Both the position numbers and the translations under genes were made by a program. From OCS116 cluster bacterium AG-430-B22 (GTDB taxonomy: Bacteria; Pseudomonadota; Alphaproteobacteria; MED-G09), in NCBI GenBank assembly GCA_003209955.1, contig QCOD01000001.1, positions 33,330 to 97,329 on the forward strand: DNA of 64,000 nt. The letters run 5' to 3'. Under the pieces are notes generated by a model. The model made no database searches and was not told the origin of the DNA. It saw only the letters and a program-made list of their open reading frames with translations. This document shows positions 31,329 to 48,145 of the stretch, in pieces (within the stretch, counting starts at the first letter, position 1; each line of letters starts with the position of its first letter).

Positions 31329-32482
31329 TTTATATTGTCGCGCATTGTTCTAAAACAATTTCTTATTTCATTTATAAAAAGTTCGGGTTGTTCAAAGGCT
31401 GCAAAATGACCTCCTTTATCTAACTCGTTCCAATAGACAATGTTTGCATAAACTTGCTCTGCCCAAGCTCTTGGTGTACGAGAGATTTCTTTTGGAAAGA
31501 TACTACAACCAATTGGTAATGAGAGTTTTTTGTCAGAATTACCTCCAAATGATCCAAAGCTTTCCCAATAAAGACGTGCTGAAGATGCACCGCTTTTTGT
31601 TAACCAATAAAACATGATATTATCAATTAATTCTTCCTTTGTGAGGATATTTTCGGGATGACCATCACAGTCAGTCCATTCATAAAATTTTTCAATTATC
31701 CAAGCCGCTTGACCTATTGGTGAATCGACTAGGCTATAACCTAAGGTTTGTGGTCTTGTGCTTTGTTGTTTTGAATAACCAGAACCCCATTCTTGATAAT
31801 AATTTAAGCCTTCAAATGCAATTTTATCCCTCTCACTTGGATTTTCTATAGCCTCCTTAGTTGGTGGAGCAAAAGGCATGTTAACATGTAGCCCTAAACA
31901 ATTACCTTTGTTCTGCTTTCCAATAGCAATTGTTATGGCTGAGCCCCAATCACCACCTTGTGCGAAGTAATTTTTATAGCCAATTTTATTCATTAATTGA
32001 TCCCAAATTTCAGCAATTTTATCAACTCCTGTTCCATTCTTTGATGGTTTACTAGAAAATCCATATCCAGGAAGAGTAGGGCAAACAACATGGAATGCAT
32101 CTTCTTTCTCTCCCCCATAATTAAGGGGATCAACGAGAGGTCTTATTATTTTATGAAATTCTACAATTGAACCAGGCCAACCATGACTCATAATTAAAGG
32201 TGTTGCATTTTCAATTTCACTTTTAACATGAACGAAATGAATATCAAGTTCATCTATAGTCGTAATATACTGATCAAAAGAATTATAATACTCTTCTCTT
32301 TTTCTCCAGTTATAGTTATTAATCCAATATTCACTAACTTCTTTCATATAAGATAAAGGGGTGCCTTGGTTCCAGTCGTTTACAGTTTCTTTTTCTGGCC
32401 ATCGGGTAGATTCGATTCTGCTTTTTAATTTATTTATATCTTCATCAGCAATTTCGATTTTGAAGGGTTTTATTTCTGACAT
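31325..32482 (-). CDS. epoxide hydrolase (microsomal EH-like, alpha/beta hydrolase with EH N-terminal domain)
   Basis: N-terminal domain signature PFKIEIADEDINKLKSRIESTRWPE; HGWPGS oxyanion motif; GGDWGS nucleophile elbow; C-terminal catalytic His (GGHFAAFEQPE). Confidence 0.85.
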   Translation of the reverse strand: MSEIKPFKIEIADEDINKLKSRIESTRWPEKETVNDWNQGTPLSYMKEVSEYWINNYNWRKREEYYNSFDQYITTIDELDIHFVHVKSEIENATPLIMSHGWPGSIVEFHKIIRPLVDPLNYGGEKEDAFHVVCPTLPGYGFSSKPSKNGTGVDKIAEIWDQLMNKIGYKNYFAQGGDWGSAITIAIGKQNKGNCLGLHVNMPFAPPTKEAIENPSERDKIAFEGLNYYQEWGSGYSKQQSTRPQTLGYSLVDSPIGQAAWIIEKFYEWTDCDGHPENILTKEELIDNIMFYWLTKSGASSARLYWESFGSFGGNSDKKLSLPIGCSIFPKEISRTPRAWAEQVYANIVYWNELDKGGHFAAFEQPELFINEIRNCFRTMRDNIN

Positions 32483-32562
32483 TGTTTTATTATTCTCACT
32501 TATTATTTAAATTATGCCAAAATTTATGCTTAAATAAAAATATATTTTTTAAGGGGAAAACT

Positions 32563-32973
32563 ATGAGTGATCATGTAGCGGATAGAATTGCTTTACAAGA
32601 TGTTATGCTTAGATATGCAGCAGGTGTTGATGAGCGTGATTTTGATCTTTATTCTTCATGTTTTATCGAAGATGTGGAGATCCTAGATTTTGGTGAAGAA
32701 CCTATAAATGGAAGAGATAATTGGGTTGAATATGTGAAAGGTGCACTCTCAAATTATGGCCCAACTCAGCATATGCTTGGCCCTCAGCTTGCCTCAATTA
32801 ATGGTGATGACGCTCACTGCAGAACAGATGTTCAGGCTTTACATTATCTTAAAGAACCCGAGGGTGAAATACTTACTCTTTGGGCAACATATGAAACAGA
32901 TATGAAGAGAGTTGATGGAGAATGGAAAATATATCGTCATAGATTAGTTTCAAGAGGAATTCGTCAGCAATAA
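32563..32973 (+). CDS. NTF2-like/SnoaL-like small protein
   Basis: About 136 aa; RIALQDVMLRYAAGVDERDFD N-terminal helix pattern typical of the SnoaL_4/NTF2 superfamily; ATG at 32563 preceded by AAGGGG RBS. The ORF-track start at 32482 would overlap the epoxide hydrolase gene. Confidence 0.55.
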   Translation: MSDHVADRIALQDVMLRYAAGVDERDFDLYSSCFIEDVEILDFGEEPINGRDNWVEYVKGALSNYGPTQHMLGPQLASINGDDAHCRTDVQALHYLKEPEGEILTLWATYETDMKRVDGEWKIYRHRLVSRGIRQQ

Positions 32974-33425
32974 TGTCTTTAAAAACAAAAATACCACCTC
33001 CAGTAGTTACAATATTATTTGCTATTATGATTTTCTATTTTTCGGACAATTTTACATATATCGATTTACCTTTTAAAATATATATTTCACTATTTTTCAT
33101 AGTATTAGGTTTTATTGTAACTTTTTCTTCAGCAAGAAATTTTAAAAAGAAGGATACAACTGTTAATCCTATGAAACCCAATGAGACCTCTAAATTAGTA
33201 ACTGATGGTTTTTTTAAGATTACACGTAACCCTATGTATTTAGGTATGTTGTTGTTTTTGTTGGGTTTATCTATTTATAACGGTTTAATTGTAGGTTTAA
33301 TATTCTTACCTTTATTTGTTGGATATATTACTTATTTTCAAATTATTCCTGAAGAGAATGCCATGCTTGAGATCTTTGGCGAAGAATACAAAGTATATAT
33401 GAAAAAAGTTAGGCGATGGATTTGA
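32973..33425 (+). CDS. isoprenylcysteine carboxyl methyltransferase (ICMT)/phospholipid methyltransferase family membrane protein
   Basis: ITRNPMYLGMLL...EE..L...FG..Y..Y signature near the C-terminus; 4 TM segments. Confidence 0.75.
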   Translation: MSLKTKIPPPVVTILFAIMIFYFSDNFTYIDLPFKIYISLFFIVLGFIVTFSSARNFKKKDTTVNPMKPNETSKLVTDGFFKITRNPMYLGMLLFLLGLSIYNGLIVGLIFLPLFVGYITYFQIIPEENAMLEIFGEEYKVYMKKVRRWI

Positions 33426-34324: not shown

Positions 34325-35092
34325 ATGATAAAAAAATTAGATAATAAAGTTGCTATAATTACCGGCGGAGCTGGCGGAATAGGGAAGGCAATAGCAATAG
34401 AATTTTTAAATCAAGGATCTGATGTATTGCTTTTTGATTTAAATGAAAGCGACTTAAAAAACTTGTGCCAAGAAATTGGCTCTAATCACCTTAGCTATTG
34501 CGCAGGTGACGTAACTTCTATTGAGGATAATTTAAGAGCTGTAGAAATAGCAAAAGAGAAATTTGGAGGTCTTGATATTTTTGTTGCAAATGCTGGCATT
34601 GAAGGTGATGTTAAAAATTTAGAAGATTATGATATTGATAAATTTGATCAAGTTATGGCTGTAAATGTGAAAGGGCCTTTTTTAGGTTTGAAGGCATCCA
34701 TTCCAGCACTAACTGATAGAGGAGGTGGAAGTTTTATTATAACTTCTAGTATCGCAGGTTTATCTGGTGCGCCACAAATAGGCGCCTATGCAACAAGTAA
34801 GCATGCCGTAATTGGTTTGATGAAATCTGCCGCAAAAGAGAATGCTGAAAAAAATATAAGAGTAAACACAGTTAACCCATCTCCTGTTGAGACAAGAATG
34901 ATGCGCAGTCTAGAGGAAGGATTGATGCCGGGTGAGTCTGAGCAAGCTAAAGATCTTATGGAATCAAATATTCCATTAGGTAGATATGGTAAACCCGAAG
35001 ATGTAGCCAAAGTAATGCTTTTCCTTGCAAGCGATGATAGTTCTTTTGTTACAGGCTCTGTTTATAATGTTGATGGAGGAAGTACTGCTTAA
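34325..35092 (+). CDS. short-chain dehydrogenase/reductase (SDR)
   Basis: VAIITGGAGGIGKAIA; NAG; YATSKHA. Confidence 0.85.
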   Translation: MIKKLDNKVAIITGGAGGIGKAIAIEFLNQGSDVLLFDLNESDLKNLCQEIGSNHLSYCAGDVTSIEDNLRAVEIAKEKFGGLDIFVANAGIEGDVKNLEDYDIDKFDQVMAVNVKGPFLGLKASIPALTDRGGGSFIITSSIAGLSGAPQIGAYATSKHAVIGLMKSAAKENAEKNIRVNTVNPSPVETRMMRSLEEGLMPGESEQAKDLMESNIPLGRYGKPEDVAKVMLFLASDDSSFVTGSVYNVDGGSTA

Positions 35093-36507
35093 GGCTTAAA
35101 AGGGCCTTTTGCAATATATTTATCCATTGTCTGGTGGTAATGCCTAAGCCTACTTTCCTGATAATTTGCATATGTTATTTTACCAGATTTACTAGCTCGA
35201 ATACCTCTTTCAACCTCAGGTATGTTACTCATATCTTGATCAAAAATAAAACCTATACCAGTTAATTCTTCAGCATCATCCCAGTTTTCATCTTCATTTA
35301 GATAATGTATTGGGATTGGTTCATACTTTTCTTGCTTATCAGGATCTTTATGATTTCTTTGCAAAAACATAGCTTCCATTATTGCAGAGTCTTCTCTATT
35401 TCCATTTGGTCGAAATCTATAGATAAGGTTTCTTGGAAAGCCACCCCAGGGTGAAAAATTTGGAAATACATTATAAACTATTGCATCAAGCATTTCTGCA
35501 TCTGATTTATCAGAGTAATCATGTCCATCGGCTTCTTCAAAGGCATCTCTCATAGCTTGTGCTGCAACCTTTCTAGCCTCCTCTCCTTCTGGGACGAGTA
35601 TCTTATCATCTGCAGCCATTCGACCAGATCCATAAAAAATGGTATCTAATATTTCTTGTTCATCTACATTTTTAAGATTTGGGCTTGGTTTTCCCGTTAA
35701 GGCAATATTTCTATTCATATGATCGCCATAAATATCATATCGTGCATTTTCATCTGCTTGGAAAGGTAAAATTTCTGGGTGAATTAATGTCGCATGAAAA
35801 GATTCCATAAATGCTTCTTGAACTGTTTTCCAGTTACCCGGAACCACTTTTGAAACATGAATAACTTTTTTACAATCACCTAAATTCCATCTTTTATGGT
35901 GTTCTGGAAGAGGAGCAAGGTATTCTTCTAATGAGACAGCCTTATCATCCATATTAATAAATACAAAGCCTTCCCAAATCTCAACTCTAACTTCAGGAAG
36001 CTTAAAATCTCTATCTTTTATGTGCTGAAAATCCCATGAAGCAGGAGTAAATTTTAATGATCCATCTAAATTCCAACAAAAACCATGGAAAGGACATTGT
36101 AGATCTTTACCAAATCCGCGTTCAGTTTTTATTCTTCTACCTCTATGCAAACAGCTATTATAAAAAGCTTGAATTTTATCTTCTTCAGATCTCACAATCA
36201 AAAAAGACCAATCAAGTATATCATATACAAGGCTGTCACCAACTTCCGGAATATCCTCTACTCTGCATGCAAATTGCCAGACTCTAGTCCACATACAGTC
36301 TCTTTCTTTTTCAAAAAATTCTTTAGAAATGTATCTGGAAGTATCAATATCTTCAGAGCCAAGATATTCATAAGTTTCTTCGACCATAAATTCAGGTACT
36401 GTTTTGGCATCTTCCATTAGGTACTCTGTATAGCTTGTATCTGGCGATCTTTCGTCACCAGTTTTAACAACTGAAAGTTTTTGATTTTCTTTTTTTATTT
36501 CACTCAT
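35089..36507 (-). CDS. Rieske [2Fe-2S] non-heme-iron oxygenase, alpha (catalytic) subunit
   Basis: Rieske motif CLHRG-x16-CPFHGFCW; mononuclear Fe ligands EAFMESFHATLIHP plus downstream Asp; 472 aa. Confidence 0.85.
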   Translation of the reverse strand: MSEIKKENQKLSVVKTGDERSPDTSYTEYLMEDAKTVPEFMVEETYEYLGSEDIDTSRYISKEFFEKERDCMWTRVWQFACRVEDIPEVGDSLVYDILDWSFLIVRSEEDKIQAFYNSCLHRGRRIKTERGFGKDLQCPFHGFCWNLDGSLKFTPASWDFQHIKDRDFKLPEVRVEIWEGFVFINMDDKAVSLEEYLAPLPEHHKRWNLGDCKKVIHVSKVVPGNWKTVQEAFMESFHATLIHPEILPFQADENARYDIYGDHMNRNIALTGKPSPNLKNVDEQEILDTIFYGSGRMAADDKILVPEGEEARKVAAQAMRDAFEEADGHDYSDKSDAEMLDAIVYNVFPNFSPWGGFPRNLIYRFRPNGNREDSAIMEAMFLQRNHKDPDKQEKYEPIPIHYLNEDENWDDAEELTGIGFIFDQDMSNIPEVERGIRASKSGKITYANYQESRLRHYHQTMDKYIAKGPFKP

Positions 36508-36681
36508 ATTAACACCATATATAGCATTCCCTAGTTTTTATGTTATTTTTTAATTTTAGCAAGAAAAAATGGTATTTTTTAAAACAAATTCTTTACTCAA
36601 AAAAAACTGTAATTTCATTATATTTTAACCTAGACTATAAACTAATTGATCTTAGTAATTAATGAAAATAGGGGGTTTTCT

Positions 36682-37080
36682 ATGAATAATATGGAAGAAA
36701 AATTAGCTATAAGAGAGCTATTAGATAGATACTGTGATGGCGTTAATCAAAGAGATGCTGACATTTGGGGCAGCACATGGTCAGAAAACGCTATCTGGGA
36801 AATTCCACATTTAGATATCAAAAATGAAAGCAAGAAAACAATCGTTAATGTTTGGAATGATGCCATGAAAGGATATCCATTTGTACATATGATAGCTCAA
36901 CCTGGTTTTATTAATATTGATGGTGATAAAGCTTATATGAGAAGTTATACTATTGAAACGGCAGTTTTACCAGATGGAACTGAATTACGACCTTGTGGTC
37001 AATATGATGACGAATGCATTAAAGAAAATGGTGAATGGAAATTTTCTAAGAGATCATTTAGCAATCTTTATGGAGAATAA
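36682..37080 (+). CDS. NTF2-like small protein translationally coupled to the Rieske alpha subunit (candidate divergent beta-like subunit)
   Basis: 132 aa from ATG 36682 (AGGGGG RBS); NTF2/SnoaL-like pattern (LLDRYCDGVNQRDADIWGSTWSENAIWEIP); stop overlaps the downstream Rieske ATG (TAATGA). Confidence 0.5.
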   Translation: MNNMEEKLAIRELLDRYCDGVNQRDADIWGSTWSENAIWEIPHLDIKNESKKTIVNVWNDAMKGYPFVHMIAQPGFINIDGDKAYMRSYTIETAVLPDGTELRPCGQYDDECIKENGEWKFSKRSFSNLYGE

Positions 37081-38450
37081 TGATAATGAATAAAATTATA
37101 CCCACGCCAAGGGATAAGCATCCCGATCCTAAACTAAGAGGAGATAGGATTTCAGGTGAAAGATATTACTCGAAAGAATTTATGCAAAAAGAATGGGATC
37201 ATATGTGGACAAAAGTGTGGCAGATTGCGGGGATTGCATCTGAGATATCAGAACCAGATGATTTTTTTGTTTATAAAATTGGCTTAGAAGAAGTTTTAGT
37301 AGTTCGCCAAAAAGATAGATCTGTAAAGGCTTTTTACAATGTTTGTCCTCATAGAGGAAATATATTGGTTCATGTTGAAAACGGATCATTAGATACTTTT
37401 AAATGCACTTACCATGGGTGGGAGTACGATACTGAGGGAGTTTTAAGGAATCTTCAAGATCCTGAGGATTTTGATGATGGTAATCCTTGTGGGAAAATTA
37501 AGTTAAAACAAATTCGTTGTGAGGTCGCCTTAGGTTTTGTTTGGATTACTCTCTCTGATGAGCCTCAAAACTTTGAAGATGCCCTTAATCCCTTAATTAG
37601 TCATATGAATCCTTATCAGCCTGAGAAATATATAAGAGTTTTAAATCTTACTTGTGAAGTTGACTGTAATTGGAAGATAATTCATGATAATTTTAATGAG
37701 TCCTATCATTTACCAACATTACACCCTGAGCTTTCTGTTCATATCGAAAATGATTATAAATTTTCGCAATTTGATATGTATGATAATGGTCACAATAGAA
37801 TGCTTATGCCCGGTCATAAACCAGCATTAGGGGATCAGTCACCAAATGAGGTCAATTTCCCTCTTGATGCTGCACTAGAGGCCTGGGATTTGAATCCTGA
37901 GGATTTTAAAGGTAAAGCTCAAGAAACAAGACTAGCTATACAAAAGCAAAAGAGAAAATTAGCCAAAGGTAGAGGTTTTTGGCATTATGAATTTTTAACC
38001 GATGAACAATTGACTGATTATTATTTTTATAATTGCTTTCCTAATTATGATATCACAATGACTCCTGATGGAATTCAGTTTCAAAGACCACAGCCACATC
38101 CAACTGATCCAGAAAAATGCCTTTTTGAGCATTGGTGGCTTGTTCCAGATATGGAGCAATTATCAGCCTCAGCAACTTTCATGGGATCTGATACAACTGA
38201 AAATACTGCTGGAGAGAATATGACCGAGACACCTCTTGGACCAAGGCCATTGAGACCTGCAGAGCATGAATGGGTAATATATCCAGAAGGTTCTATGGGT
38301 TATGTTACTGATCAAGATATCAGTATGGCCATAGGTCAGCAAAAAGGCGTCAAGTCAAAAGGCTTTGATGATGCAATTTTAACTAATCAAGAAAGAAGGG
38401 TTAGAAGGTATCACGAGGTGCTAAATGATTATATTGAAGGAAGAAGATAA
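37080..38450 (+). CDS. Rieske [2Fe-2S] non-heme-iron oxygenase, alpha subunit
   Basis: CPHRG-x17-CTYHGWEY; DNFNESYHLPTLHP catalytic motif; 456 aa. Confidence 0.85.
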   Translation: MIMNKIIPTPRDKHPDPKLRGDRISGERYYSKEFMQKEWDHMWTKVWQIAGIASEISEPDDFFVYKIGLEEVLVVRQKDRSVKAFYNVCPHRGNILVHVENGSLDTFKCTYHGWEYDTEGVLRNLQDPEDFDDGNPCGKIKLKQIRCEVALGFVWITLSDEPQNFEDALNPLISHMNPYQPEKYIRVLNLTCEVDCNWKIIHDNFNESYHLPTLHPELSVHIENDYKFSQFDMYDNGHNRMLMPGHKPALGDQSPNEVNFPLDAALEAWDLNPEDFKGKAQETRLAIQKQKRKLAKGRGFWHYEFLTDEQLTDYYFYNCFPNYDITMTPDGIQFQRPQPHPTDPEKCLFEHWWLVPDMEQLSASATFMGSDTTENTAGENMTETPLGPRPLRPAEHEWVIYPEGSMGYVTDQDISMAIGQQKGVKSKGFDDAILTNQERRVRRYHEVLNDYIEGRR

Positions 38451-38457
38451 GATTAAA

Positions 38458-39432
38458 TTAATATAATTCAATCATTATTCCAGGTTCAACTGTGTAAAAA
38501 TTAATATTTGTTTCAGAGACTATTTTCTTCAAGCGTTCTCTAGGCTCTAAAACCGGTTCATCAGTTAATATAAAGGTTCCCCAGTGCATTCCTATACTTT
38601 TTTTAGCCTCAAGATCTATTGATATATTCAGTGCTTCCTCTGGAGTAACATGAGAATAACTCATAAACCATTCAGGATCATATGCACCAATAGGTATCAT
38701 TGCAAAATCTACCGGCCCAAGTTTATTCTTTATTTCAACAAAATCTTTTGAATAACCTGTATCTCCAGCATGAAAAATATTCTTATTATCATTTTTAATG
38801 AACCAACTTCCCCATAAACTTTTATTTCTATCTCTAAGACCTCTTGCCGACCAATGCTGCGCTGGAGTGAAAGTGAATTTTGTTTTGCTTATTATCTTAT
38901 CTTCCCACCATATGAACTCATATCCATTAATAAGTTTATAGTTTTTCAGTAATTTTAAATCACCCTTTGGAACCAAAATTTTAACATCAGGAAATTTTTT
39001 TTGTATTTTTCTTAAGCTATTTATATCAAGATGATCATAATGATTATGACTAATTGTAATAACATCAATTTTTGGTAAATCTTTAATATCGATTACAGGT
39101 TTAATTAGTCTTTTTGGTCCAGCAAAAGATAATGGAGAAGCCCTATCCGAGAATATAGGATCAAATAAAATTGTAATATCGCCATTATTAACTAGAAACG
39201 TAGAGTGGCCAATCCATAAAGCATAAAATTTACGATCATCAAAAAATTCAGAATTTATAATTTCACTTGTTTCAATAAATTCTTTTTTTGGCTCTTCCCG
39301 ACTCCAGCTCCATTTTAGAACTTCACTAAAGCTTTTTTCATTCTTCTTACCATCAGAATTGGAAAACCTATCTTCTGAAAAAGATATTGAAGTAGAAAGT
39401 AGAATTATAAAAAAAATTAATAGTAATCTCAT
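38458..39432 (-). CDS. secreted metallo-beta-lactamase-fold hydrolase (NAPE-PLD-like)
   Basis: Signal peptide; ITISHNHYDHLD (HxHxDH); downstream His/Asp ligands. Confidence 0.7.
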   Translation of the reverse strand: MRLLLIFFIILLSTSISFSEDRFSNSDGKKNEKSFSEVLKWSWSREEPKKEFIETSEIINSEFFDDRKFYALWIGHSTFLVNNGDITILFDPIFSDRASPLSFAGPKRLIKPVIDIKDLPKIDVITISHNHYDHLDINSLRKIQKKFPDVKILVPKGDLKLLKNYKLINGYEFIWWEDKIISKTKFTFTPAQHWSARGLRDRNKSLWGSWFIKNDNKNIFHAGDTGYSKDFVEIKNKLGPVDFAMIPIGAYDPEWFMSYSHVTPEEALNISIDLEAKKSIGMHWGTFILTDEPVLEPRERLKKIVSETNINFYTVEPGIMIELY

Positions 39433-39490
39433 GCAAATTATATAGTCTTAAATAGATATGTTTTCAAATAATGATTTTAAGGAATAAAAT

Positions 39491-40693
39491 ATGGAAAAAA
39501 TATACGATATTATTATCTGGGGAGCGAGTGGTTTTACAGGAAGATTAGCCGTCGATTATATTTATAAGAATCAAAATAACAGTAATTTGACATGGGCTGT
39601 AGCAGGCAGAAACGAGTCAAAGATTAAAGAGATGCTTGATGGAAAGAATGTGCCAATTCTTATTGCAGATAGCCATGATAAGGAATCCTTGGTCGATCTG
39701 GTTAAAAAAACAAAAGTAATTCTAACAACTGTTGGTCCATATGCGAGATATGGATCTGAGTTAGTAGAAGCATGTGCCGAGAATGGAACTCATTATTGTG
39801 ATCTAACAGGTGAAGTGCATTGGATGAGGCATATGATAACTAAATATCAAAATACAGCTCAAGAAAGTGGAGCAAAAATTGTTCATACTTGTGGTTTTGA
39901 CAGCATTCCGTCAGATATAGGAGTTTATTTTCTTCAGAAAAATATGCGTGAATTGTACGGTGTAAATGCAAAACAAATAAAATATAGAACAAGAGGCTTC
40001 TCAGGAGGTGCCAGCGGTGGAACTGTAGATAGTCTTATGTCAATGATGGAACAAGCCAAAAAAGATTCTTCTATTCTTAAAATTATTGCAAACCCATACG
40101 CTCTTAATGACAAAGAAAAAGGTCTAGATGGTCCGGATAAAATGTCACCATATTTTGACAAAGATTTTGACGCTTGGGTTGGCCCTTTTATTATGGCAGG
40201 AATTAATACTAGAGTAGTTAGAAGAACAAATGAATTACTCAATAATATTTATGGAGATAATTTTGAATATAATGAAGGTAGCATTACTGGAAAAGGGCCA
40301 AAAGGCTTAATTGGCGCAACAACATCTGGAGTGGTGACCGGAGGAATGGCAGGAATGGCAGCATTTTCTCCAACAAGATCGATTTTAAAAAGTTTTCTAC
40401 CTAAGCCAGGTGAGGGGCCTTCAGAAGAAACAATGGAAAATGGTTTTTTTGAAATCGAATTATTGGGCATCCACCCAACGGATAGGGATAAAGATATGAG
40501 GGTTTGGATTCATGGTGATAAAGACCCAGGATACAAATCTACCGCTAAAATGATATCGGAGAGTGCTATGGCTCTAGCTCAAAATGATTTAAGCGTTGGT
40601 GGTGGTTTTTGGACTCCCGCTTCTGCAATGGGAGATACTCTTATAAATCGCTTACCAAATGCTGGAGTAACTTTTAAGATAATGGATAGTTAA
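39491..40693 (+). CDS. saccharopine dehydrogenase-like NAD(P)-binding oxidoreductase
   Basis: YDIIIWGASGFTGRLAV Rossmann N-terminus; 400 aa, characteristic of the Sacchrp_dh family. Confidence 0.65.
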   Translation: MEKIYDIIIWGASGFTGRLAVDYIYKNQNNSNLTWAVAGRNESKIKEMLDGKNVPILIADSHDKESLVDLVKKTKVILTTVGPYARYGSELVEACAENGTHYCDLTGEVHWMRHMITKYQNTAQESGAKIVHTCGFDSIPSDIGVYFLQKNMRELYGVNAKQIKYRTRGFSGGASGGTVDSLMSMMEQAKKDSSILKIIANPYALNDKEKGLDGPDKMSPYFDKDFDAWVGPFIMAGINTRVVRRTNELLNNIYGDNFEYNEGSITGKGPKGLIGATTSGVVTGGMAGMAAFSPTRSILKSFLPKPGEGPSEETMENGFFEIELLGIHPTDRDKDMRVWIHGDKDPGYKSTAKMISESAMALAQNDLSVGGGFWTPASAMGDTLINRLPNAGVTFKIMDS

Positions 40694-40701
40694 GGAGAAT
40701 A

Positions 40702-41058
40702 TTGATGATAAAAGTTATAATGCCTATGAGAAGAAAAGAAGGTATGACAATCGATGAATTTCGAGAATACTATGAAACTAAACACAGAATAATAGGTGAG
40801 AAATATCTAACAGGATACGCTACAAAATATATAAGACGCTTTACCAACCCTTTGCCTGACAGATCAGGAAAGACATTTGATCCAGATTTTGATGTATTGA
40901 TGGAGATTTGGTATCCGGACATGGAAACATTTGAAAAATGCGCTGAAAACCTTCAAAAACCTGAAATTAAAAAAGAAATAAATGACGATGAAGAAAAAAT
41001 TTTCGATTTGTCTTTAATGAGAACCTATATTGTTGAGGAACATGAATCTGAGATGTAA
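40702..41058 (+). CDS. EthD-domain small protein (dimeric alpha/beta-barrel)
   Basis: 118 aa; MIKVIMPMRRKEGMTIDEFREYYETKH matches the start of EthD-family proteins. Confidence 0.5.
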   Translation: MMIKVIMPMRRKEGMTIDEFREYYETKHRIIGEKYLTGYATKYIRRFTNPLPDRSGKTFDPDFDVLMEIWYPDMETFEKCAENLQKPEIKKEINDDEEKIFDLSLMRTYIVEEHESEM

Positions 41059-41379
41059 GATTTTCGTTTGAAATAACTTTAAGAATCAATAAAATAAATT
41101 TATTGATAAATCAAAGCGCTTAACAAGATCAGAGAGAGCTAGAAAAAGAAGAAGTAATACCAAAACCATTATTAGTAAAAGAACTCAAAATACTTATTCT
41201 CAATTTTATAGATTAAAAATAAAAAGACAAAAAATAAAAATTAAATTAGTTCAATAAAGCTTTAAAAAATTCTAATAAAAAAGTTATCCACATAAAATTA
41301 AAAAAAAATATCGCATAAATACAAAATTTCTTATTAGATGATAATCATTCTCAGTTTTAAAAATAATAAGGAGGGTTAT
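41059..41379 (+). promoter_or_regulatory. unusually long (321 bp) AT-rich non-coding leader ending in a strong SD (AAGGAGGG) before the small-membrane-protein gene pair
   Basis: No ORF on either strand; other intergenic gaps in the window are mostly 0-120 bp. Confidence 0.4.
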
Positions 41380-41781
41380 ATGACTGAATATCAAATTCTA
41401 AATATGTTTTGGATGCAAGCTATAAGCAATGCAATGTTTCAATTAGGCGTTTTTGTTCTTTTGTGGGCTGCATTAAGAGGATCATTAAGGATTTATGATC
41501 AAGGAGCTAATTTACCTACAAAAATTATTAGTTCTTTATTCGGGCTTGGCATAGTTTATAGCGGTTTACAGATTTCTGGGTTCTTTTCTATTAATTGGAG
41601 AAGTACTTCATATTCTTTAGGGCAATTAGAGAATTTATCTCCGCATTCACAAAGATTTGTTGATTTTTTACCAATTTCCGATCCTCCTGAATTTTCATTA
41701 ATCCCATGGGATCCAATCACGGGCGTATGGTGGATAGTAGTTATTATCGCTCTTCTTGCGCCAATTTGGGTAAAGAAATAA
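41380..41781 (+). CDS. small 3-TM membrane protein, paralog A
   Basis: ATG at 41380 with AAGGAGGG RBS; 133 aa; shares a conserved core with paralog B (LPTKIISSLFGLGIVYSGLQ vs LFTKVVSSLFGLITLAYAWQ). Confidence 0.6.
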   Translation: MTEYQILNMFWMQAISNAMFQLGVFVLLWAALRGSLRIYDQGANLPTKIISSLFGLGIVYSGLQISGFFSINWRSTSYSLGQLENLSPHSQRFVDFLPISDPPEFSLIPWDPITGVWWIVVIIALLAPIWVKK

Positions 41782-41833
41782 AAATAATAAAAAATTATAA
41801 AAATCTATTCATTATTTAAGAAAGGAGAAAAAA

Positions 41834-42238
41834 ATGGATGAATTACAAATATGGACATTGTTTAGCTCGAACAGAATCGGTTCAGCTTTAATTGGAATAG
41901 GTATCATTTTGGCTATTTGGCTGTCTTTAAGAATTGCAAAGGCAACAAGAGAGTCAGACGAGGCAAATCTTTTTACAAAAGTTGTTTCCAGTCTTTTTGG
42001 TCTAATAACTCTTGCCTATGCTTGGCAACAATACACAATTGGTGGAAATATTAGAGTAGCTGCAGCGCAAAATCTTTCAAATTTAAAAGAGAGCGGTACA
42101 GAGCTTTCACAGGTTGCAGAAGGTTTTATTTCTAATGTTGGAACTACTTTTTCTCCTACGCCATCGGTATTAGGTATAGCATTTATTGTGGTTATAGCAG
42201 TTATGATTCTTGGACAGATTTGGCTTCCAAAAAATTAA
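41834..42238 (+). CDS. small 3-TM membrane protein, paralog B
   Basis: 134 aa; AAAGGAG RBS; same topology as paralog A (2 N-terminal TMs, soluble segment, C-terminal TM). Confidence 0.6.
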   Translation: MDELQIWTLFSSNRIGSALIGIGIILAIWLSLRIAKATRESDEANLFTKVVSSLFGLITLAYAWQQYTIGGNIRVAAAQNLSNLKESGTELSQVAEGFISNVGTTFSPTPSVLGIAFIVVIAVMILGQIWLPKN

Positions 42239-42257
42239 ATTTAAAAGAAAAAAAATT

Positions 42258-42290
42258 AAAGCGTCCTTGTTTAAGGGCGCTTTTTATTTT
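42258..42290. terminator. bidirectional rho-independent terminator between convergent genes
   Basis: aaagcgtcc-ttgtttaa-gggcgc stem-loop flanked by A-run upstream and tttttatttt downstream; overlaps the stop of the minus-strand Rieske gene. Confidence 0.65.
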
Positions 42291-43720
42291 GGAAGCTTTC
42301 CACTTAAGTAATCGTGAAGCGTTTCATGAAAGTATCTAACTCTTGTTTCTTGAGCTGCAAGATAAGGCTCTTGGTATCCTTTAGACCTAACACCTCTTCT
42401 TAAACCATCAGTAAGTTGCCAGTCTTGGTAAACGACATGATCCCATAAGTCTTCAACTCCTTTGCCGCCATCATAATCTCTAAAATCTAATTCAACTTCT
42501 TGAAGTTTTACGGGGTTTACTTTAGTACGACTAAGAAATTCCTGGTCGTTAGCCTCATCTTTTTTACCTATACCTGCAGAGGTTGAAGTAAATTTTTGAT
42601 CGTTGTCTCTGCCTGTTTTTCCTATACCTTTTGCTGATCCACCAATTGGATATCCCATATCCCAAAGATCAAAAAAACATTTTTCAGGATCAGTTGGATG
42701 TGGAAACCAGTTTAAGAGAATACAACCATCTGCTTGTATACCCATAGCAATATTTGGAAAAATGAATTGAAAAGGGCTTTCTGTTAATTCTTCATCAGAT
42801 AGGTTTTCATAATGATGATAACCTTTTTCTTTATATAATTTTCTTTTTGCTTTTTTTAAATCTGTCCAACCCTGCTCAGATAACGTTTCATAATCAGGAT
42901 ACTGACTCACATCAACTCCCCAACTTTCAAGTATAATTTTGAACGGATGATCTTCATCTTCTTTTACTCTATCTCTTAATGATGGTCGACCCATTTGAAT
43001 TATTCTTGCATGACCTTTTGGAAACATTTCATATCTTGAAGTAAAATGATCTTGGTCAATTACTGAAGGGACCTGCGGATGTACAAATCGAGTATGATAT
43101 GACTCATTAAAATTATCGCAAAAGAATTTCCAATTAACATCCAACTCAACTCTAACCCATTGGGCTCTAATTTGGTCTTTGAAATTGTGATTTTTATATA
43201 TCTCAGGAATTGGGTCTAAATAATCCATAAGATCAGGAGCTTGATCGCTCATAGTGTAAAAAATGAAACCATCCCATGTATCAACTCTAACTTCGACTAG
43301 CTTTCTTTTACCTACTGGACTTCCTTGAGGATAGTCATCTTCATCAGGAACACTTATTACATCGCCATTTAACCCAAATTGCCAATCATGATAAGGGCAT
43401 CGAAAAGAGTCTTGTGAACTATCGCATTCAACTAGTCTTTGACCTCGATGCGCACAGCTATTGTAGAAACCTCTTAAAGATCCATCTTTTTGTCTTACAA
43501 TGATAACGGACTCTTTAACTAAATCATGAACTATATAATCACCTGGTTCTTCAATTTGCACTTCTCTACCAGCTATTAACCATACCTTTGTCCACATATG
43601 GTTCCATTCTTTATCCATAAAATCTTTACAAAAATAACGATCGTTAGTTATTGAGTCGCCTCTTAATTCATTAGGATTTTTACCGTCTAATACTGATGGA
43701 TGTTTGATTATTTTATCCAT
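42284..43720 (-). CDS. Rieske [2Fe-2S] non-heme-iron oxygenase, alpha subunit
   Basis: CAHRG-x17-CPYHDWQF; DNFNESYHTRFVHP; 478 aa. Confidence 0.85.
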   Translation of the reverse strand: MDKIIKHPSVLDGKNPNELRGDSITNDRYFCKDFMDKEWNHMWTKVWLIAGREVQIEEPGDYIVHDLVKESVIIVRQKDGSLRGFYNSCAHRGQRLVECDSSQDSFRCPYHDWQFGLNGDVISVPDEDDYPQGSPVGKRKLVEVRVDTWDGFIFYTMSDQAPDLMDYLDPIPEIYKNHNFKDQIRAQWVRVELDVNWKFFCDNFNESYHTRFVHPQVPSVIDQDHFTSRYEMFPKGHARIIQMGRPSLRDRVKEDEDHPFKIILESWGVDVSQYPDYETLSEQGWTDLKKAKRKLYKEKGYHHYENLSDEELTESPFQFIFPNIAMGIQADGCILLNWFPHPTDPEKCFFDLWDMGYPIGGSAKGIGKTGRDNDQKFTSTSAGIGKKDEANDQEFLSRTKVNPVKLQEVELDFRDYDGGKGVEDLWDHVVYQDWQLTDGLRRGVRSKGYQEPYLAAQETRVRYFHETLHDYLSGKLPK

Positions 43721-43787
43721 TTTCCCCCAAGAAAAATTATCTATTAATTAATAATAATATTATTTAACTAGAAAAAAACAAATTTTG

Positions 43788-45104
43788 CTATCGATTTATA
43801 TATCTATCGATAAAATTATGAAATTGTTGGACGCGATTTTCTTGTCCCGATAAATACGCCCCTTCAAAACCACTTGAATGAAAGCCTAGTTGTTGGGCAC
43901 TAGCTCTTTCTAGGTCTTGGTCAGCCACATCACTAAGAGTTTCCTCACCAAATATGACAACTCTTTTTTCTACCTCTTCCCAAGGAACCATATCTTCAGG
44001 AGATGCAACTAGATCAGAATCATTAGACTTTAATGCAAAACCCCAATGATCAAATATAGATTTATTTGGATCGTCAGGATGTGGCTCTGTTCTTTGTAAA
44101 GAGACAACATTTGCCGTATATGTAATTGATGTTCCCGGAAAAATATTGAAATGAAATGCATCAGTTAACCATGCGTCAGGCAAATTCTCAAAATGATCGA
44201 ACCCCCTTTCTTTCCCAAGCTTCTTTTTTTGATTTTGTAAACTTTCTCTAACCAAATGAGCTTTTTTATTAAAATCTTCTGGGTTTAAATTCCAATAAGT
44301 TAGCTCAGCTTCTAATTTTTCATTCATCTCAAAAGTTTTTGAGTTTCTAAGTGAAGGAAGAGATCCCTTCATTTTCATTAAGTTATGACCTGTTTCATAG
44401 AGTTCAAAGTCAGTATTTTTGTAATCATCATCATAATAATCACTAATTTGAGGGTGAGTTGCGGGTAGATGATAAGATTCACAGAAATTATCCCTTAATG
44501 CTTTCCAATTAAAAGGAACTTCACAAACTTTATAATATACTCTTTTTAAGCCCTCATTATCATACATATCTAAATATTTAGTTATTTCACCGAGAAAACC
44601 TTTTAAAGGAAAACAATTTTTATCCATATTATACCATATAAAACCTGCATATTCTTCACATGGTATTTCATTAAGCTTTAGTTTTCCGCATGGGTTACCC
44701 TGCGGAAAATCATCGTCATCTTGAGCATAAATTAATTCACCTTCATAATTAAATTTCCATCCATGATATGTGCATCTAAAATCACTAACAAAACCTGCAT
44801 CAACATGAACAAGTCTGTTTCCTCTGTGTGGGCAGACATTATGAAAAGCTCTAACTTTATTGTGTTTATTTCTAACCAGTAAAATTGACTCTCTACCGAT
44901 ATTATGAGTTACAAAATCTCCTTCTTTTTCGAGTTCTCTTCCCCAGCAACCAATATTCCAAACTTTTGACCATAATTTTGATAGTTCTTTTTCCATAAAA
45001 TCTTTTGAAGTATATCTATCACCTGTAATTTTTACTTCTTCATCGTAAATTCTATTAGCTGAACCGCTTACGCTTGCTTTTCTTTGTTTTTCTGGATCTT
45101 CCAA
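43788..45104 (-). CDS. Rieske [2Fe-2S] non-heme-iron oxygenase, alpha subunit
   Basis: CPHRG-x17-CTYHGWKF; DNFCESYHLPATHP; 438 aa. Confidence 0.85.
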   Translation of the reverse strand: MEDPEKQRKASVSGSANRIYDEEVKITGDRYTSKDFMEKELSKLWSKVWNIGCWGRELEKEGDFVTHNIGRESILLVRNKHNKVRAFHNVCPHRGNRLVHVDAGFVSDFRCTYHGWKFNYEGELIYAQDDDDFPQGNPCGKLKLNEIPCEEYAGFIWYNMDKNCFPLKGFLGEITKYLDMYDNEGLKRVYYKVCEVPFNWKALRDNFCESYHLPATHPQISDYYDDDYKNTDFELYETGHNLMKMKGSLPSLRNSKTFEMNEKLEAELTYWNLNPEDFNKKAHLVRESLQNQKKKLGKERGFDHFENLPDAWLTDAFHFNIFPGTSITYTANVVSLQRTEPHPDDPNKSIFDHWGFALKSNDSDLVASPEDMVPWEEVEKRVVIFGEETLSDVADQDLERASAQQLGFHSSGFEGAYLSGQENRVQQFHNFIDRYINR

Positions 45105-45225: not shown

Positions 45226-47682
45226 ATGAAAGTTTTTAATTCTTTATCATTTTCATTTATTTTAGTTTTTAGTTTCAATGTTTTAAATGCTCAAGAAGAG
45301 CCATTAGTTAATTTATCAAGCAGTATTGAAGAAATAGTTGTTACTGCAAGAGCAACAGATGAATCTATAAGGGATATCCCTGTATCAATTACTGCCTATG
45401 ATGAGGAAGCTCTTGAAACATTTGGAATTAAAGACCTCCAAGATTTAGCAGCTTCATCTGCATCACTTGAAATTGGTCAAATAAATAGCGGAAGCGGTTT
45501 CCAAATAGCAGTAAGGGGTATTTCCTCTAGTCCTGGAAGTATTGGAATTGAGCAATCAGTAGCGCTAATGATTGATGGCGTTTATTATCCACAAGGTAGA
45601 ACTATACATGAAGGATTATTTGATGCTAGCCAAGTGGCTATTTTAAAAGGCCCCCAAGCATTATATTTTGGTAAAAATGCTACTGCTGGAGCTATAGTCA
45701 TTACAACTAATGATCCTGGAGAAGAAACTGAGTGGTCAGCAAAAATATCTAATGAATTTGAATATAAAAATAAATCAGCAGAGTTAGTTTTTTCAACACC
45801 TATAAGTGATAATTGGGGAGTAAGACTTGCTTTGAAAAGTTCAAAAATGGATGAAGGCTGGATCATTAATGATGCAGGTGAAACTAGCTATAATACACTT
45901 GATGTAGGTAATGGTTTTGCTGCATCTTCATACCCAAATGATAAAGCATATGATTTTGCTCCTCAAACAGAAAATACATTTGCAAGAATAACTTTGAAAG
46001 GTCAGCTTGCAGACAATATTACATTAAAAGTAAAAGCATCCACTGCTGAAACTGAAAATACTTCTCTTGCTCTGCACGAAAATTTTGAATGTCTTACTCT
46101 AAACGGAGTATCGCATGTTAATTCAGGAGTTGGACCAGGCGGCATTCAAGCACCACTTCCTAACCCCAATGATATAACGGCTTGTAATAAAGATGGTAGA
46201 CGTGGATCTAATCCTATTCCTAAAGCTGTTGCTGATGTTACACCACTTGAAGGACAGTTTGGAGGGGCTCTTGGAGAAGTTTATGAGTCTAATATTATAA
46301 CTGCGAGTCTTGATATTGAATTAGATAATTATGATATATTAACTGTAGCTAATATTGCTGAACAAGAGGTTGGCTGGGTTATTGACTGTGATGGAACTGC
46401 ATTTACAAGTTGTTTTGCTGGTGAAGGCAACAGTTATGAAAATATAGCTATTGAGTCTAAAATTGTATCAAAAAATTCTGGTAATTTTAATTGGGCTTTT
46501 GGTGTCTATTATCAGGAATGGGAGTTAAATTTTGCTCAAGAAGTTACTTTTGCTAATTTGGAAGATTCATCAGCACCAGACATTTATCGTTATCTAGCTT
46601 ATAACAAGATCTCTCAAACTGAGGGTGAGGCTATATCAGTTTATGGTGAAGCTATTTGGGATATAAATGAGAATTTACAATTAACTGCTGGAGGTAGATT
46701 TATTAAAGAGGAAAAAGATTCCTATTTTACCCAACCTTATGCAAATGCAGCAGTTCTTGGGTTATTTAATTTAGGTAGATTTATTGAAGTTGAAACTGAT
46801 CTTGATGATTTTGTTCCTGAGGTAACACTTCGTTATCAACCCAATGATAATACAACTTATTATGTCGCTTATAAAGAAGGCTGGAAGTCTGGAGGATTTG
46901 ATAATGGTACAATTGATAGCACATTAAATATAGATCCATATAAAGATATTCAATATGATCCAGAAACCGTTAAAGGTTTTGAATTAGGCGTTAAGACTCT
47001 GTTATTTGATGGAGCTATGAAACTTGATCTTGATCTATACACCTATGAATATGATGACTTACAGCTTAATTATTTTAATGCTGCTATATTTGCTTATAGA
47101 ACTCTTAATGCACCAGAGTCAGAATCAAAAGGTTTCGATTTAGCGGTTACATACTACCCGCCTTTGATAGAAGGTTTACTATTAAATGCATCTGTATCAT
47201 ACAATGAGGCTGCCTATAAGAAATTTAATGGCCCTTGTTATAGCGGACAAAAGCCATCTGAAGGTTGTAATATTGGAACAGGTCCATTGAAAGATCAAAA
47301 TCTCGATGGCAATCAAATGGCCCTAGCTCCTGAACTAAGGATTAATTATGGGTTTAATTTTTCTACCCCTATAGGTAATGGTTTAGATCTTGGAATTAAT
47401 CTTAATGCAAAATTTTCTGACGATTATCCTTTAACCGCATGGATTAATGCTAAACAAGAGTCTTATACTACTGTTGATTCATCTGTATTTATAAATTCTG
47501 ATAGTGGCTGGTCTGTTGGCTTAATAGGAAGAAACCTAAGTGATGAATATATTCAAACAATTTCTGCCGAAACTCCATCAACCGGTGGTAATACAGGTAC
47601 AGAATTCGGCTTCCCTGCCGACAGATATGCCTATGTTAAGCCTGGTAGAACACTTATGCTTGAGTTATCTTACAAGAGATAA
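45226..47682 (+). CDS. TonB-dependent outer-membrane receptor
   Basis: Signal peptide; TonB-box-like EEIVVTAR; plug motifs (ISSSPGSIG...DGVYY; LKGPQALYFG.NATAGAI); about 820 aa beta-barrel-sized C-terminal region. Confidence 0.8.
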   Translation: MKVFNSLSFSFILVFSFNVLNAQEEPLVNLSSSIEEIVVTARATDESIRDIPVSITAYDEEALETFGIKDLQDLAASSASLEIGQINSGSGFQIAVRGISSSPGSIGIEQSVALMIDGVYYPQGRTIHEGLFDASQVAILKGPQALYFGKNATAGAIVITTNDPGEETEWSAKISNEFEYKNKSAELVFSTPISDNWGVRLALKSSKMDEGWIINDAGETSYNTLDVGNGFAASSYPNDKAYDFAPQTENTFARITLKGQLADNITLKVKASTAETENTSLALHENFECLTLNGVSHVNSGVGPGGIQAPLPNPNDITACNKDGRRGSNPIPKAVADVTPLEGQFGGALGEVYESNIITASLDIELDNYDILTVANIAEQEVGWVIDCDGTAFTSCFAGEGNSYENIAIESKIVSKNSGNFNWAFGVYYQEWELNFAQEVTFANLEDSSAPDIYRYLAYNKISQTEGEAISVYGEAIWDINENLQLTAGGRFIKEEKDSYFTQPYANAAVLGLFNLGRFIEVETDLDDFVPEVTLRYQPNDNTTYYVAYKEGWKSGGFDNGTIDSTLNIDPYKDIQYDPETVKGFELGVKTLLFDGAMKLDLDLYTYEYDDLQLNYFNAAIFAYRTLNAPESESKGFDLAVTYYPPLIEGLLLNASVSYNEAAYKKFNGPCYSGQKPSEGCNIGTGPLKDQNLDGNQMALAPELRINYGFNFSTPIGNGLDLGINLNAKFSDDYPLTAWINAKQESYTTVDSSVFINSDSGWSVGLIGRNLSDEYIQTISAETPSTGGNTGTEFGFPADRYAYVKPGRTLMLELSYKR

Positions 47683-47699
47683 TTAAAATATAGATAAAT

Positions 47700-47737
47700 A
47701 AGCCCTAAATTTTAATTGATTTGGGGCTTTTTTATGT
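47700..47737. terminator. rho-independent terminator between convergent genes (TonB-dependent receptor + / NTF2-like -)
   Basis: aagcccta-aattttaattgatt-tggggctt stem-loop (one mismatch) followed by ttttt. Confidence 0.5.
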
Positions 47738-48145
47738 AGTATGTAAAATTGAAAAAGTCCTTTTTTGGAAATACCAATGACCATCAATTTTAATAAATTC
47801 ATCATGATATTGTCCGTGAGTTTGTGATTTAATATTTTCTTTATCTGTACCTACCTCGATTGTATATGTTGTTCCTTTAGCGATATTTCCATCAATTGTT
47901 AAAGATCCAAGCAGAGCTACAAATACTATGTATTCGTAATTACTCATGGCTTCTTCCCATTTTTTTACAATTTGATCTCTTCCTTCAACTTTTTCAAGAC
48001 CAGGAAAGTTTGGAACGCTCCAAATTGCATCTTCAGACCATGTATTACCCCAATCTTTTGAATCATTTCTACTAACTGAATCTCCATATGACATTACCAA
48101 TTCGTGAAGAGCTAGTTTATCTTCAGTATTTCCAACAAAACTCAT
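47732..48145 (-). CDS. NTF2-like small protein (paralog of 36682..37080)
   Basis: KLALHELVMSYGDSVSRNDSKDWGNTWSEDAIWSVP parallels KLAIRELLDRYCDGVNQRDADIWGSTWSENAIWEIP. Confidence 0.5.
   Translation of the reverse strand: MSFVGNTEDKLALHELVMSYGDSVSRNDSKDWGNTWSEDAIWSVPNFPGLEKVEGRDQIVKKWEEAMSNYEYIVFVALLGSLTIDGNIAKGTTYTIEVGTDKENIKSQTHGQYHDEFIKIDGHWYFQKRTFSILHTT

Follow-up and report, generated by a model that had tools for sequence, protein, structure and literature searches.

Four Rieske oxygenase alpha-subunit genes without linked electron donors in a marine alphaproteobacterium of the PS1 clade

Introduction

In the group V Rieske oxygenases, the monooxygenases that act on carnitine, betaines, choline and similar osmolytes, oxygenase and reductase genes are adjacent. 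Such enzymes work as two-component systems, each oxygenase having a reductase of its own, as CntA has CntB (PMC7948474), and one account gives YeaX as the dedicated reductase of such a system (PMC9508527). The carboxylate that bridges the two metal centres of CntA is a glutamate, E205, and the third ligand of its mononuclear iron is native Asp323 (PMC7948474); in some group V enzymes the first iron-binding histidine is flanked by a Cys-x-x-Cys pair (PMC10952381). In Sphingobium yanoikuyae B1, according to one report, many terminal oxygenases share a single ferredoxin/reductase pair (PMC1847435). Here we examine four genes for Rieske oxygenase alpha subunits, which we call paralogues A, B, C and D, in a stretch of 64,000 nucleotides (the window) from contig QCOD01000001.1 of OCS116 cluster bacterium AG-430-B22 (assembly GCA_003209955.1, positions 33,330 to 97,329). 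A preliminary description of this DNA had presented the four as alpha-only oxygenases, expanded within a streamlined genome and likened to the quaternary-amine enzymes. We suggest instead, with moderate confidence, that they are functional terminal oxygenases of a widespread and uncharacterised clade, supplied with electrons in trans and housed in a PS1 catabolic island.

Results

Four complete alpha subunits

The four open reading frames (ORFs) lie exactly where the preliminary description had placed them (Table 1), and Pfam, a six-frame motif scan and a four-way alignment agree with its statement that each encodes a complete Rieske centre and a mononuclear iron site. In all four, the Rieske domain PF00355 scores above the Pfam cut-off (E 1e-13 to 2e-15), as does Ring_hydroxyl_A PF00848 (E 4e-17 to 8e-31; 63-108 bits against a cut-off of 24.9). 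The motif CxH-x16-17-CxxH occurs exactly four times in the six frames of the 64 kb, once per alpha gene (A 36085-36153, B 37344-37415, C 43388-43456, D 44763-44834). The Rieske ligands C89, H91, C109 and H112 (B numbering, used throughout) are invariant in the alignment, and so are the bridging carboxylate E207 and the iron ligands H210, H215 and D413, the last of which falls opposite position 343 in the numbering of the tagged CntA construct (native Asp323). At the first iron histidine the motif is ESYH or ESFH in all four, the iron site of A reading ESFH-x4-H. The AlphaFold2 (AF2) monomer model of B (pLDDT 92.4) has the Rieske oxygenase alpha fold. Judged by domain and ligand completeness, computed directly, A to D are intact, complete Rieske oxygenase alpha subunits. 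The N-terminal signature that had been proposed for them is present in all four (R28, Y29, K32, F34, K37, E38, W43, V46 and W47); because part of it is also carried by CntA (YTSSQVFEHEKEAIFAKSW), it largely overlaps a helix general to alpha subunits.

No electron donor or canonical beta subunit in the window

When ORFs of at least 60 aa and stop-to-stop segments of at least 40 aa were searched in all frames, no plant-type, adrenodoxin-type, 4Fe-4S, rubredoxin or small Rieske motif was found in the whole window, and Pfam searches of nearly every ORF in it found no FNR-type reductase, no glutathione-reductase-type reductase and no beta subunit of family PF00866. The lack of reductase and ferredoxin genes that had been noted for 10 kb thus holds over a much longer stretch, 35 kb on the upstream side of the four genes and 19 kb on the downstream side, and the parallel observation on canonical beta subunits holds for all 64 kb. 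Since no beta subunit, ferredoxin or reductase is nearby, the electrons for A to D must come from genes elsewhere, as had been supposed. The window also encodes a 412-aa protein with a fatty-acid-hydroxylase (PF04116) di-iron domain (Table 1), another oxygenase that requires an external donor and that likewise has no donor gene nearby.

A clade outside the quaternary-amine and aromatic-ring groups

The preliminary description had called for phylogenetic placement. In a neighbour-joining tree in which CntA and 3n0q stood for group V (Stc2 and GbcA were absent) beside four alpha3beta3 references, A to D and their relatives are monophyletic with 94% bootstrap support, an exclusive clade joining them to CntA/3n0q receives 12%, and the four alpha3beta3 references are split from everything else with 76%. 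The family thus falls neither inside the first group nor with the second, and forms a clade of its own.

Several observations could nevertheless be read in favour of the view, to which the preliminary description leaned, that A to D are alpha3 quaternary-ammonium monooxygenases of group V. CntA is the best PDB sequence match of A and of B, and also of the profile of the B orthogroup (CntA 152, 3n0q 130, naphthalene dioxygenase (NDO) 127, Stc2 120 bits); the model of B retrieves 3n0q, Stc2 and CntA first by E-value in Foldseek; and, among NCBIfam models, GbcA gives the top score to A, B and D and shares it with HcaE for C. The bridging carboxylate is a glutamate, as had been noted and as in CntA, and a phenylalanine stands two residues before it, matching the substrate-binding CntA-203 position, which is aromatic in "Va" and Asn in "Vb" enzymes (DNFNESYH against DNYMECYH in CntA; PMC7948474). 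Other observations speak against it. With the GbcA equivalog the four reach 110-122 bits where 670 are required, over model positions ~35-226 of 420 and hence the N-terminal half only; HcaE scores 72-113 bits against 830, and no NCBIfam equivalog cut-off is reached by any of the four. C scores HcaE, IadD and BphA1, all alpha3beta3 enzymes, above CntA, and the TM-scores of the B model (0.62-0.65) are equal for group V and for the terephthalate dioxygenase (TPADO) and naphthalene dioxygenase alphas. The bridging glutamate, found in 140 of 140 family members assigned to classes A to D, is not exclusive to group V, being present also in a second alpha family that is co-located with this one. The phenylalanine is not diagnostic, because it falls within a family-wide (D/E)N(F/Y) motif seen also in NDO (AENFVGDAYH) and BphA1. 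The Cys-x-x-Cys pair of CntA, Stc2 and 3n0q is missing (ESYHL or ESFHA in A to D against ECYHC in CntA and 3n0q; compare PMC10952381), no CntB/GbcB-type reductase is encoded in the window or in 79 related genome loci, and the surrounding genes (TonB receptors, short-chain dehydrogenases/reductases (SDRs), acyl-CoA dehydrogenases, P450s, an epoxide hydrolase) are not those of osmolyte catabolism. Membership of the quaternary-amine group is thus improbable; these comparisons point to a distinct clade, nearer to the beta-less side of the family and outside group V.

Could A to D instead be ordinary alpha3beta3 aromatic dioxygenases, with genes for the beta subunit, ferredoxin and reductase a short way beyond the window ends? 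They share PF00848 and have similar sequence scores against the alphas of NDO, biphenyl dioxygenase (BPDO) and HcaE, and their relatives use Rieske-type ferredoxins, like dioxygenases of class IIB/III. Beta genes, however, normally follow the alpha gene directly, and none occurs within 19-35 kb; nor does PF00866 appear in the list of 25 families (out of a total of 36) to which 61 small same-strand neighbours of clade alphas were assigned. The bridging residue of HcaE, IadD, BphA1 and NdoB is Asp, against Glu in A to D, and the bootstrap split given above separates the two sets. We regard this reading as very improbable.

Ancient divergence of the paralogues

We compared the window with 79 genome loci fetched around homologues of B (some counts below use 80 loci). 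Within the window, B is 42% identical to D, 38% to C and 27% to A by alignment; the four range from 27 to 42%, A being the most divergent. Outside PS1, relatives of B in Sphingomonas, Pseudomonas, Aromatoleum, Porticoccaceae and others are 47-58% identical, a metagenome-assembled genome (MAG) of the Parvibaculales (L080) holds a 47% orthologue of C, and relatives of A reach 75% (L082) and 43% (Sphingorhabdus). Since each paralogue is closer to outside relatives, also in other orders, than to the others, A to D belong to four anciently separated subfamilies and are no recent expansion, which runs counter to the four-fold expansion envisaged in the preliminary description. Nor is the number of copies unusual. 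The alpha family comprises 167 genes in 76 loci, at least two per locus being the rule, and one Parvibaculales MAG has five alphas within 20 kb and no donor. Assigned by best window paralogue, 83 genes are B-class, 43 A-class, 12 C-class and 2 D-class (140 in total), and the clade as a whole is of moderate size, amounting to 293 clusters at 50% identity (E<=1e-30). Clusters of diverged paralogues without donors are the norm here, and A to D are ordinary members of an uncharacterised clade. Literature searched on PS1, Parvibaculum and NTF2-like beta subunits gave no description of it, and the bile-salt "Rieske monooxygenase" of Sphingobium Chol11, considered as a characterised relative, was rejected as a KshA homologue of a different family.

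Two further arrangements were seen among these loci. The co-located alpha family mentioned above (~395-440 aa, motif WKxAxDGYLEGYHF), which has no member in the window and carries the bridging Glu in most of its members, stands beside the clade in ~20 sphingomonad loci, including L013, L015, L017, L020, L025, L030, L047, L054, L058, L060, L064, L068, L070, L077 and L079. Six Porticoccaceae/SAR92 loci (L044-L046, L049, L056, L075) share a conserved operon around a B-class alpha, in the order three to four SDRs, the alpha, a secreted VOC/glyoxalase protein and a Vgb-lyase-like beta-propeller, with no SnoaL_4, ferredoxin or reductase gene. Genes of ~176 aa downstream of Porticoccaceae alphas were tried as beta subunits and rejected, being VOC/glyoxalase proteins.

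Electron carriers and gene context of the relatives

No genuine plant-type ferredoxin or fused reductase was found in the 79 loci; ORFs with a "Fer2 motif" in high-GC loci were rejected as spurious, and reductase candidates with two GxGxxG motifs near relatives as Arg-rich, off-frame ORFs. A small Rieske-type ferredoxin (C[ST]HxxSxLxxGRIRRGxIxCPLHG) is present in 8 of the 79. It is also found in a compact operon of Sphingomonas oryzagri (L083), in which a TonB-dependent receptor, an SDR, an alpha (a 32% relative with the motif FNESYH), ThuA, a second SDR and the ferredoxin follow one another. A search with the ferredoxin protein gave 14 matches. At the loci examined no reductase was linked either to clade alphas or to the Rieske ferredoxin, and the latter is the only linked electron carrier that we saw in the clade. 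The analogy drawn in the preliminary description, of donors encoded elsewhere as for CntA and GbcA, therefore fails, for those are two-component systems with a dedicated reductase and this clade is linked to a Rieske-type ferredoxin.

Recurring neighbours across the loci are SDRs (147 genes), Zn-ADH-like reductases, TonB receptors (28 of 80 loci), acyl-CoA dehydrogenases and synthetases, pairs of SCPx-thiolase and DUF35, SnoaL_4 proteins, KstD-like FAD enzymes, P450s, VOC proteins, EthD and TetR regulators. As far as context goes, this would suit pathways for hydrophobic aromatic, alicyclic or steroid-like acids rather than for osmolytes.

NTF2-like genes associated with the clade

Three genes of the SnoaL_4 family, Sno1, Sno2 and Sno3 (Table 1), had been overlooked. 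The ATG of Sno2, at 36682, is preceded by AGGGGG, a good ribosome-binding site, its stop codon overlaps the start of B (TAATG), and 174 bp separate it from the divergent gene A. Across the loci there are 67-71 SnoaL_4 genes in 44-46 of 80, and a same-strand SnoaL_4 gene is immediately adjacent to 27 of 83 B-class alphas (16 downstream, 11 upstream, many with -1 or -4 overlaps), to 1 of 43 A-class and to 2 of 12 C-class alphas; the 61 small same-strand neighbours include 30 SnoaL_4 and ~10 VOC proteins. In metagenome loci from a scan with the ferredoxin profile (labelled L085-L164), a SnoaL_4 gene of ~140 aa lies directly downstream of the Rieske ferredoxin in 31 of 62, at gaps of 9-130 bp, and all 31 are of the Sno3 subtype (at least 60 bits to Sno3). 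The same pair occurs in genome loci L014, L016, L017 and L059. The window has kept Sno3, with no ferredoxin gene upstream of it. The association of SnoaL_4 with the clade is real and non-random, and the description of the four as "alpha-only" is unproven, given a SnoaL_4 gene that is coupled to B and recurs with the clade.

The Sno2 family (55-93% identity, ~135 aa) matches PF13577 only. The AF2 model of Sno2 (pLDDT 95.8) has as its closest folds in Foldseek LinA, 3b8l, a putative scytalone dehydratase, Rv3472 and BaiE, with TM 0.84-0.91 and rmsd 1.5-2.2 A to LinA, 3b8l, 3ef8 and BaiE; the only match labelled as a beta subunit, 3eby, is at rank 45. SnoaL_4 profiles searched against the PDB matched LinA, BaiE, Rv3472 and KSI, and no dioxygenase beta subunit at E<=1. 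LinA has a catalytic Asp/His dyad. Asn22 is nearly invariant in the Sno2 family, which has no conserved His. The helix-1 position that is Asp in Rv3472 (D26) and in 3b8l, located by alignment to 2chc (D26N) and 3b8l (AVD), is taken by Asn, Ser, Thr, Ile or Cys in proteins of the Sno2/Sno3 subtype; among the 31 linked to a ferredoxin it is T, I, C or N. With neither the Asp nor a conserved His, acid-base catalysis of the LinA/BaiE type by Sno2 and Sno3 seems unlikely. Sno1, of a different subtype, keeps the GVD...TQH residues of 3b8l-type relatives and is possibly a catalytic lyase or isomerase.

These data bear on the proposal that at least B, and perhaps the whole clade, forms alpha3-(NTF2)3 enzymes in which a small subunit of the Sno2/Sno3 type stands in for the classical beta subunit and helps to dock a Rieske-type ferredoxin, which we consider possible, if doubtful. 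The overlap of Sno2 with B, the adjacency statistics, the absence of PF00866 from the listed neighbours and the ferredoxin pairing all favour it, and the missing Asp counts against the alternative of LinA-type catalysis. Ring_hydroxyl_B, the canonical beta subunit, is also a trimeric protein of NTF2 fold. To this may be added that 56 of 64 Sno2-family members match the small-subunit model AndAd, weakly, and that in alpha3beta3 enzymes the ferredoxin-binding site is placed, in one account, at the alpha-beta boundary (PMC9361823). Fused double SnoaL_4 proteins of ~350 aa also occur beside clade alphas (L024:11311-12360, L029:11125-12423, L080:14244-15314), directly downstream of the alpha in L024 and L029, and in the L024 protein the C-terminal of the two SnoaL_4 units exceeds the PF00866 threshold (35 against 27 bits), the one hit to that family near clade alphas. 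Against this, a SnoaL_4 neighbour is lacking for two-thirds of the B-class and for almost every A-class alpha, B stands alone in this respect in the PS1 relatives L002, L003 and L006, alpha and ferredoxin occur with no NTF2 gene in the S. oryzagri operon, the profile search retrieved no beta subunit, and the fold search ranks LinA, 3b8l and BaiE first. Taken as a family, the SnoaL_4 proteins are tentative candidates for the role of a non-canonical small subunit or of a partner at which the ferredoxin docks. The fuller version, in which Sno2 and Sno3 would form a catalytically dead NTF2 trimer that replaces the beta subunit and docks a Rieske ferredoxin since lost from the PS1 locus, encoded either coupled to the alpha (Sno2-B) or as a ferredoxin-NTF2 module serving several alphas in trans, strikes us as rather unlikely. 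Were it true, the four "alpha-only" enzymes would be a modular alpha/NTF2 system oxidising scarce marine ring compounds.

Host and catabolic island

The window has a GC content of 29-37%. Because B is 97% identical in the MAG "Rhodobiaceae bacterium RS626" (L001) and 95% in LRMED-253, and two single-cell genomes labelled "PS1 clade" have it at 88% and 73%, the host is a low-GC marine alphaproteobacterium of the PS1 clade (Parvibaculales). The order A-Sno2-B is kept in the PS1 relatives L001 and L005. In L002, L003, L004 and L006 the B orthologue is placed elsewhere, uncoupled from any SnoaL_4 gene: in the PS1-clade loci L002, L003 and L006 its neighbours (it is 73-88% identical) are a TonB receptor and a gene of Amidohydro_2 type, and in L002 it follows dapA/smpB-like genes. 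Since these neighbourhoods differ, the oxygenase island is variable within the PS1 clade. A scan for tRNAs at the island borders found none. On a related marine contig (L082, 4206-6217), an A orthologue (75%) is divergent from a Sno2 orthologue (73%) and there is no B, so that the link of Sno2 with A may be as close as that with B.

It is extremely improbable, we think, that some of A to D are decaying or silent remnants whose electron donors were lost in a streamlined genome. Such a view would explain the lack of donor genes nearby and the presence of Sno3 without a ferredoxin gene in front of it, such as other genomes have, but the four ORFs are intact, every metal ligand is conserved, B at 97% and A at about the same level are retained with the same synteny in L001 and L005, and the genes are tightly packed, with a coupled start.

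The genes around A to D (Table 1) are, by their Pfam matches, catabolic or detoxifying. C lies downstream of D on the same strand in a tandem pair (gap 67 bp), and D is divergent from a TonB-dependent receptor gene at a distance of 121 bp, whose product is the probable substrate importer for the D-C unit. The window also holds alpha/beta hydrolases, metallo-beta-lactamase-fold hydrolases, a GMC oxidoreductase, SDRs, four genes like those of glutathione S-transferases (GSTs), DUF2855 and a CoA-transferase.

Table 1. Features of the window discussed in the text, in window coordinates
Feature	Position	Strand	Remarks	Basis
TonB-dependent receptor	15196-17523
Di-iron oxygenase	21966-23204		412 aa; fatty-acid-hydroxylase domain	PF04116
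Epoxide hydrolase	31325-32482	-		Pfam
Sno1, SnoaL_4, different subtype	32482..32973	+	163 aa	Pfam, 85 bits
PEMT-like methyltransferase	32973-33425			Pfam
PhyH-type 2-oxoglutarate dioxygenase	33429-34316			Pfam
SDR	34325-35092		convergent with A	Pfam
Paralogue A, Rieske oxygenase alpha subunit	35089..36507	-	472 aa	Pfam PF00355 + PF00848
Sno2, SnoaL_4 / NTF2-like	36682..37080	+	132 aa	Pfam PF13577, 68 bits
Paralogue B, Rieske oxygenase alpha subunit	37080..38450	+	456 aa	Pfam PF00355 + PF00848, alignments
Metallo-beta-lactamase-fold hydrolase	38458-39432	-	no iron-sulfur motif	Pfam
Saccharopine-dehydrogenase-like NAD(P) protein	39491-40693		no iron-sulfur motif	Pfam
EthD protein	40702-41058		no iron-sulfur motif	Pfam
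Small hydrophobic ORF	41338-41781		147 aa	no Pfam match
Small hydrophobic ORF	41834-42238		134 aa	no Pfam match
Paralogue C, Rieske oxygenase alpha subunit	42284..43720	-	478 aa	Pfam PF00355 + PF00848
Paralogue D, Rieske oxygenase alpha subunit	43788..45104	-	438 aa; TTG start	Pfam
TonB-dependent outer-membrane receptor	45226..47682	+		Pfam Plug + TonB_dep_Rec
Sno3, SnoaL_4 / NTF2-like	47732..48145	-	137 aa; 40% identical to Sno2	Pfam
Beta-propeller phytase	48249-49328
C-5 cytosine DNA methyltransferase	52796-53890		overlaps end of ChrR-cupin gene	PF00145, E 6e-81

Some further features deserve mention. That 35 kb should encode a beta-propeller phytase and a pair of TonB-dependent receptors is consistent with the scavenging of scarce substrates across the outer membrane. 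The two small ORFs between the EthD gene and C look membrane-like and, judged by eye, share a ...LFGL...Y...Q...G... pattern, as a gene duplicated in tandem would. The cytosine methyltransferase gene has no identified restriction endonuclease gene next to it.

Discussion

We posit that A to D work as donor-dependent terminal oxygenases in the following manner. By analogy with the family, each alpha would assemble head-to-tail as a trimer; an electron would enter the Rieske [2Fe-2S] cluster (C89/H91/C109/H112 in B) and cross the subunit interface via Glu207 to the neighbour's mononuclear iron (H210/H215/D413), where O2 would be activated and the substrate hydroxylated. An NAD(P)H-dependent reductase and a ferredoxin encoded elsewhere, probably common to all four, would supply the electrons. 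The ancestral arrangement was most likely a three-component chain, since relatives with a linked carrier always have the small Rieske-type ferredoxin, and the streamlined PS1 genome may have lost a dedicated ferredoxin gene from this locus. Ring compounds would be imported by the adjacent TonB-dependent receptor, and the products processed further by the SDR, epoxide hydrolase, GST, PhyH and NTF2-like neighbours. Because TonB receptors, SDRs, an epoxide hydrolase, GSTs and PhyH adjoin the oxygenases, we favour hydrophobic ring substrates over quaternary amines, which are unlikely; probable substrates are aromatic or alicyclic compounds that are hydrophobic and scarce.

Several points weigh against this account. 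The clade is without a characterised member, so that the activity, the oligomeric state and the substrate of A to D are all properties that we infer. Coupled as it is to a SnoaL_4 gene, B may not be an alpha-only enzyme. The tree is a neighbour-joining one of 194 N-terminal columns, with six reference fragments taken from HMMER alignments, and structural similarity to the model of B does not separate alpha3 from alpha3beta3 relatives (TM ~0.63 to both). No donor genes of this genome came to light: the metagenome scan with the ferredoxin profile yielded only contigs of GC >=0.48, none of them PS1-like, and donor genes may lie just beyond the 35 kb upstream and 19 kb downstream that the window covers.

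We note that PS1-clade bacteria are common in surface seawater, and that a small genome which devotes ~10 kb to four terminal oxygenases invests heavily in them. In sphingomonads, Porticoccaceae (SAR92) and Parvibaculales alike, the clade is repeatedly found with TonB receptors, SDRs and acyl-CoA enzymes, and it is therefore plausible that through it dissolved organic matter of a hydrophobic or alicyclic kind is oxidised. Annotation of A to D as monooxygenases of carnitine, betaine or choline should be avoided, and so should annotation as aromatic dioxygenases of the classical type. The ferredoxin-NTF2 pair, together with the coupling of alpha and NTF2 genes, is the one unexpected lead of this work, and offers a concrete hypothesis on the subunit composition of Rieske oxygenases.

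It remains to set this locus beside the systems that it most resembles. With group V (CntA, GbcA/BmoA, Stc2, choline monooxygenase, OxyBAC; PDB 6y8j, 3vca, 3n0q) A to D share PF00355 and PF00848, the lack of a PF00866 beta gene, a bridging Glu at the same N-x-x-E-x-Y-H spacing and, for A and B, marginally the best sequence and fold matches. They differ in forming a separate clade at ~17-19% full-length identity, in the missing Cys-x-x-Cys, in having no adjacent FMN/[2Fe-2S] reductase, their relatives being linked to Rieske-type ferredoxins, and in a context of hydrophobic-compound catabolism as opposed to osmolyte use. With the alpha3beta3 dioxygenases (naphthalene, biphenyl, cumene, HcaEF, IadDE) they have in common the alpha fold (TM ~0.6-0.64), similar N-terminal scores, best for C, and a Rieske-type ferredoxin among clade relatives, whereas the bridging Glu, the bootstrap split and neighbours among which PF00866 is not listed set them apart.

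Anthranilate dioxygenase AndAcAdAbAa comes to mind because JGI names the ferredoxin relatives AndAb-like and because of the weak AndAd matches of the Sno2 family, but with AndAc at 55-83 bits against 750 and AndAd at no more than ~30 against 230, this is a resemblance and not membership. Sno2 has the NTF2 fold of LinA, BaiE, Rv3472 and Saro_3538/3b8l (a "putative aromatic ring hydroxylase") and matches them by profile, and departs from them, as does Sno3, in the residues of the putative catalytic site. S. yanoikuyae B1, finally, has alpha3beta3 enzymes with a canonical beta subunit, whereas ours is a small, low-GC marine genome; in both, multiple oxygenase genes are scattered or clustered without donors of their own, and many relatives of the clade described here come from sphingomonads.

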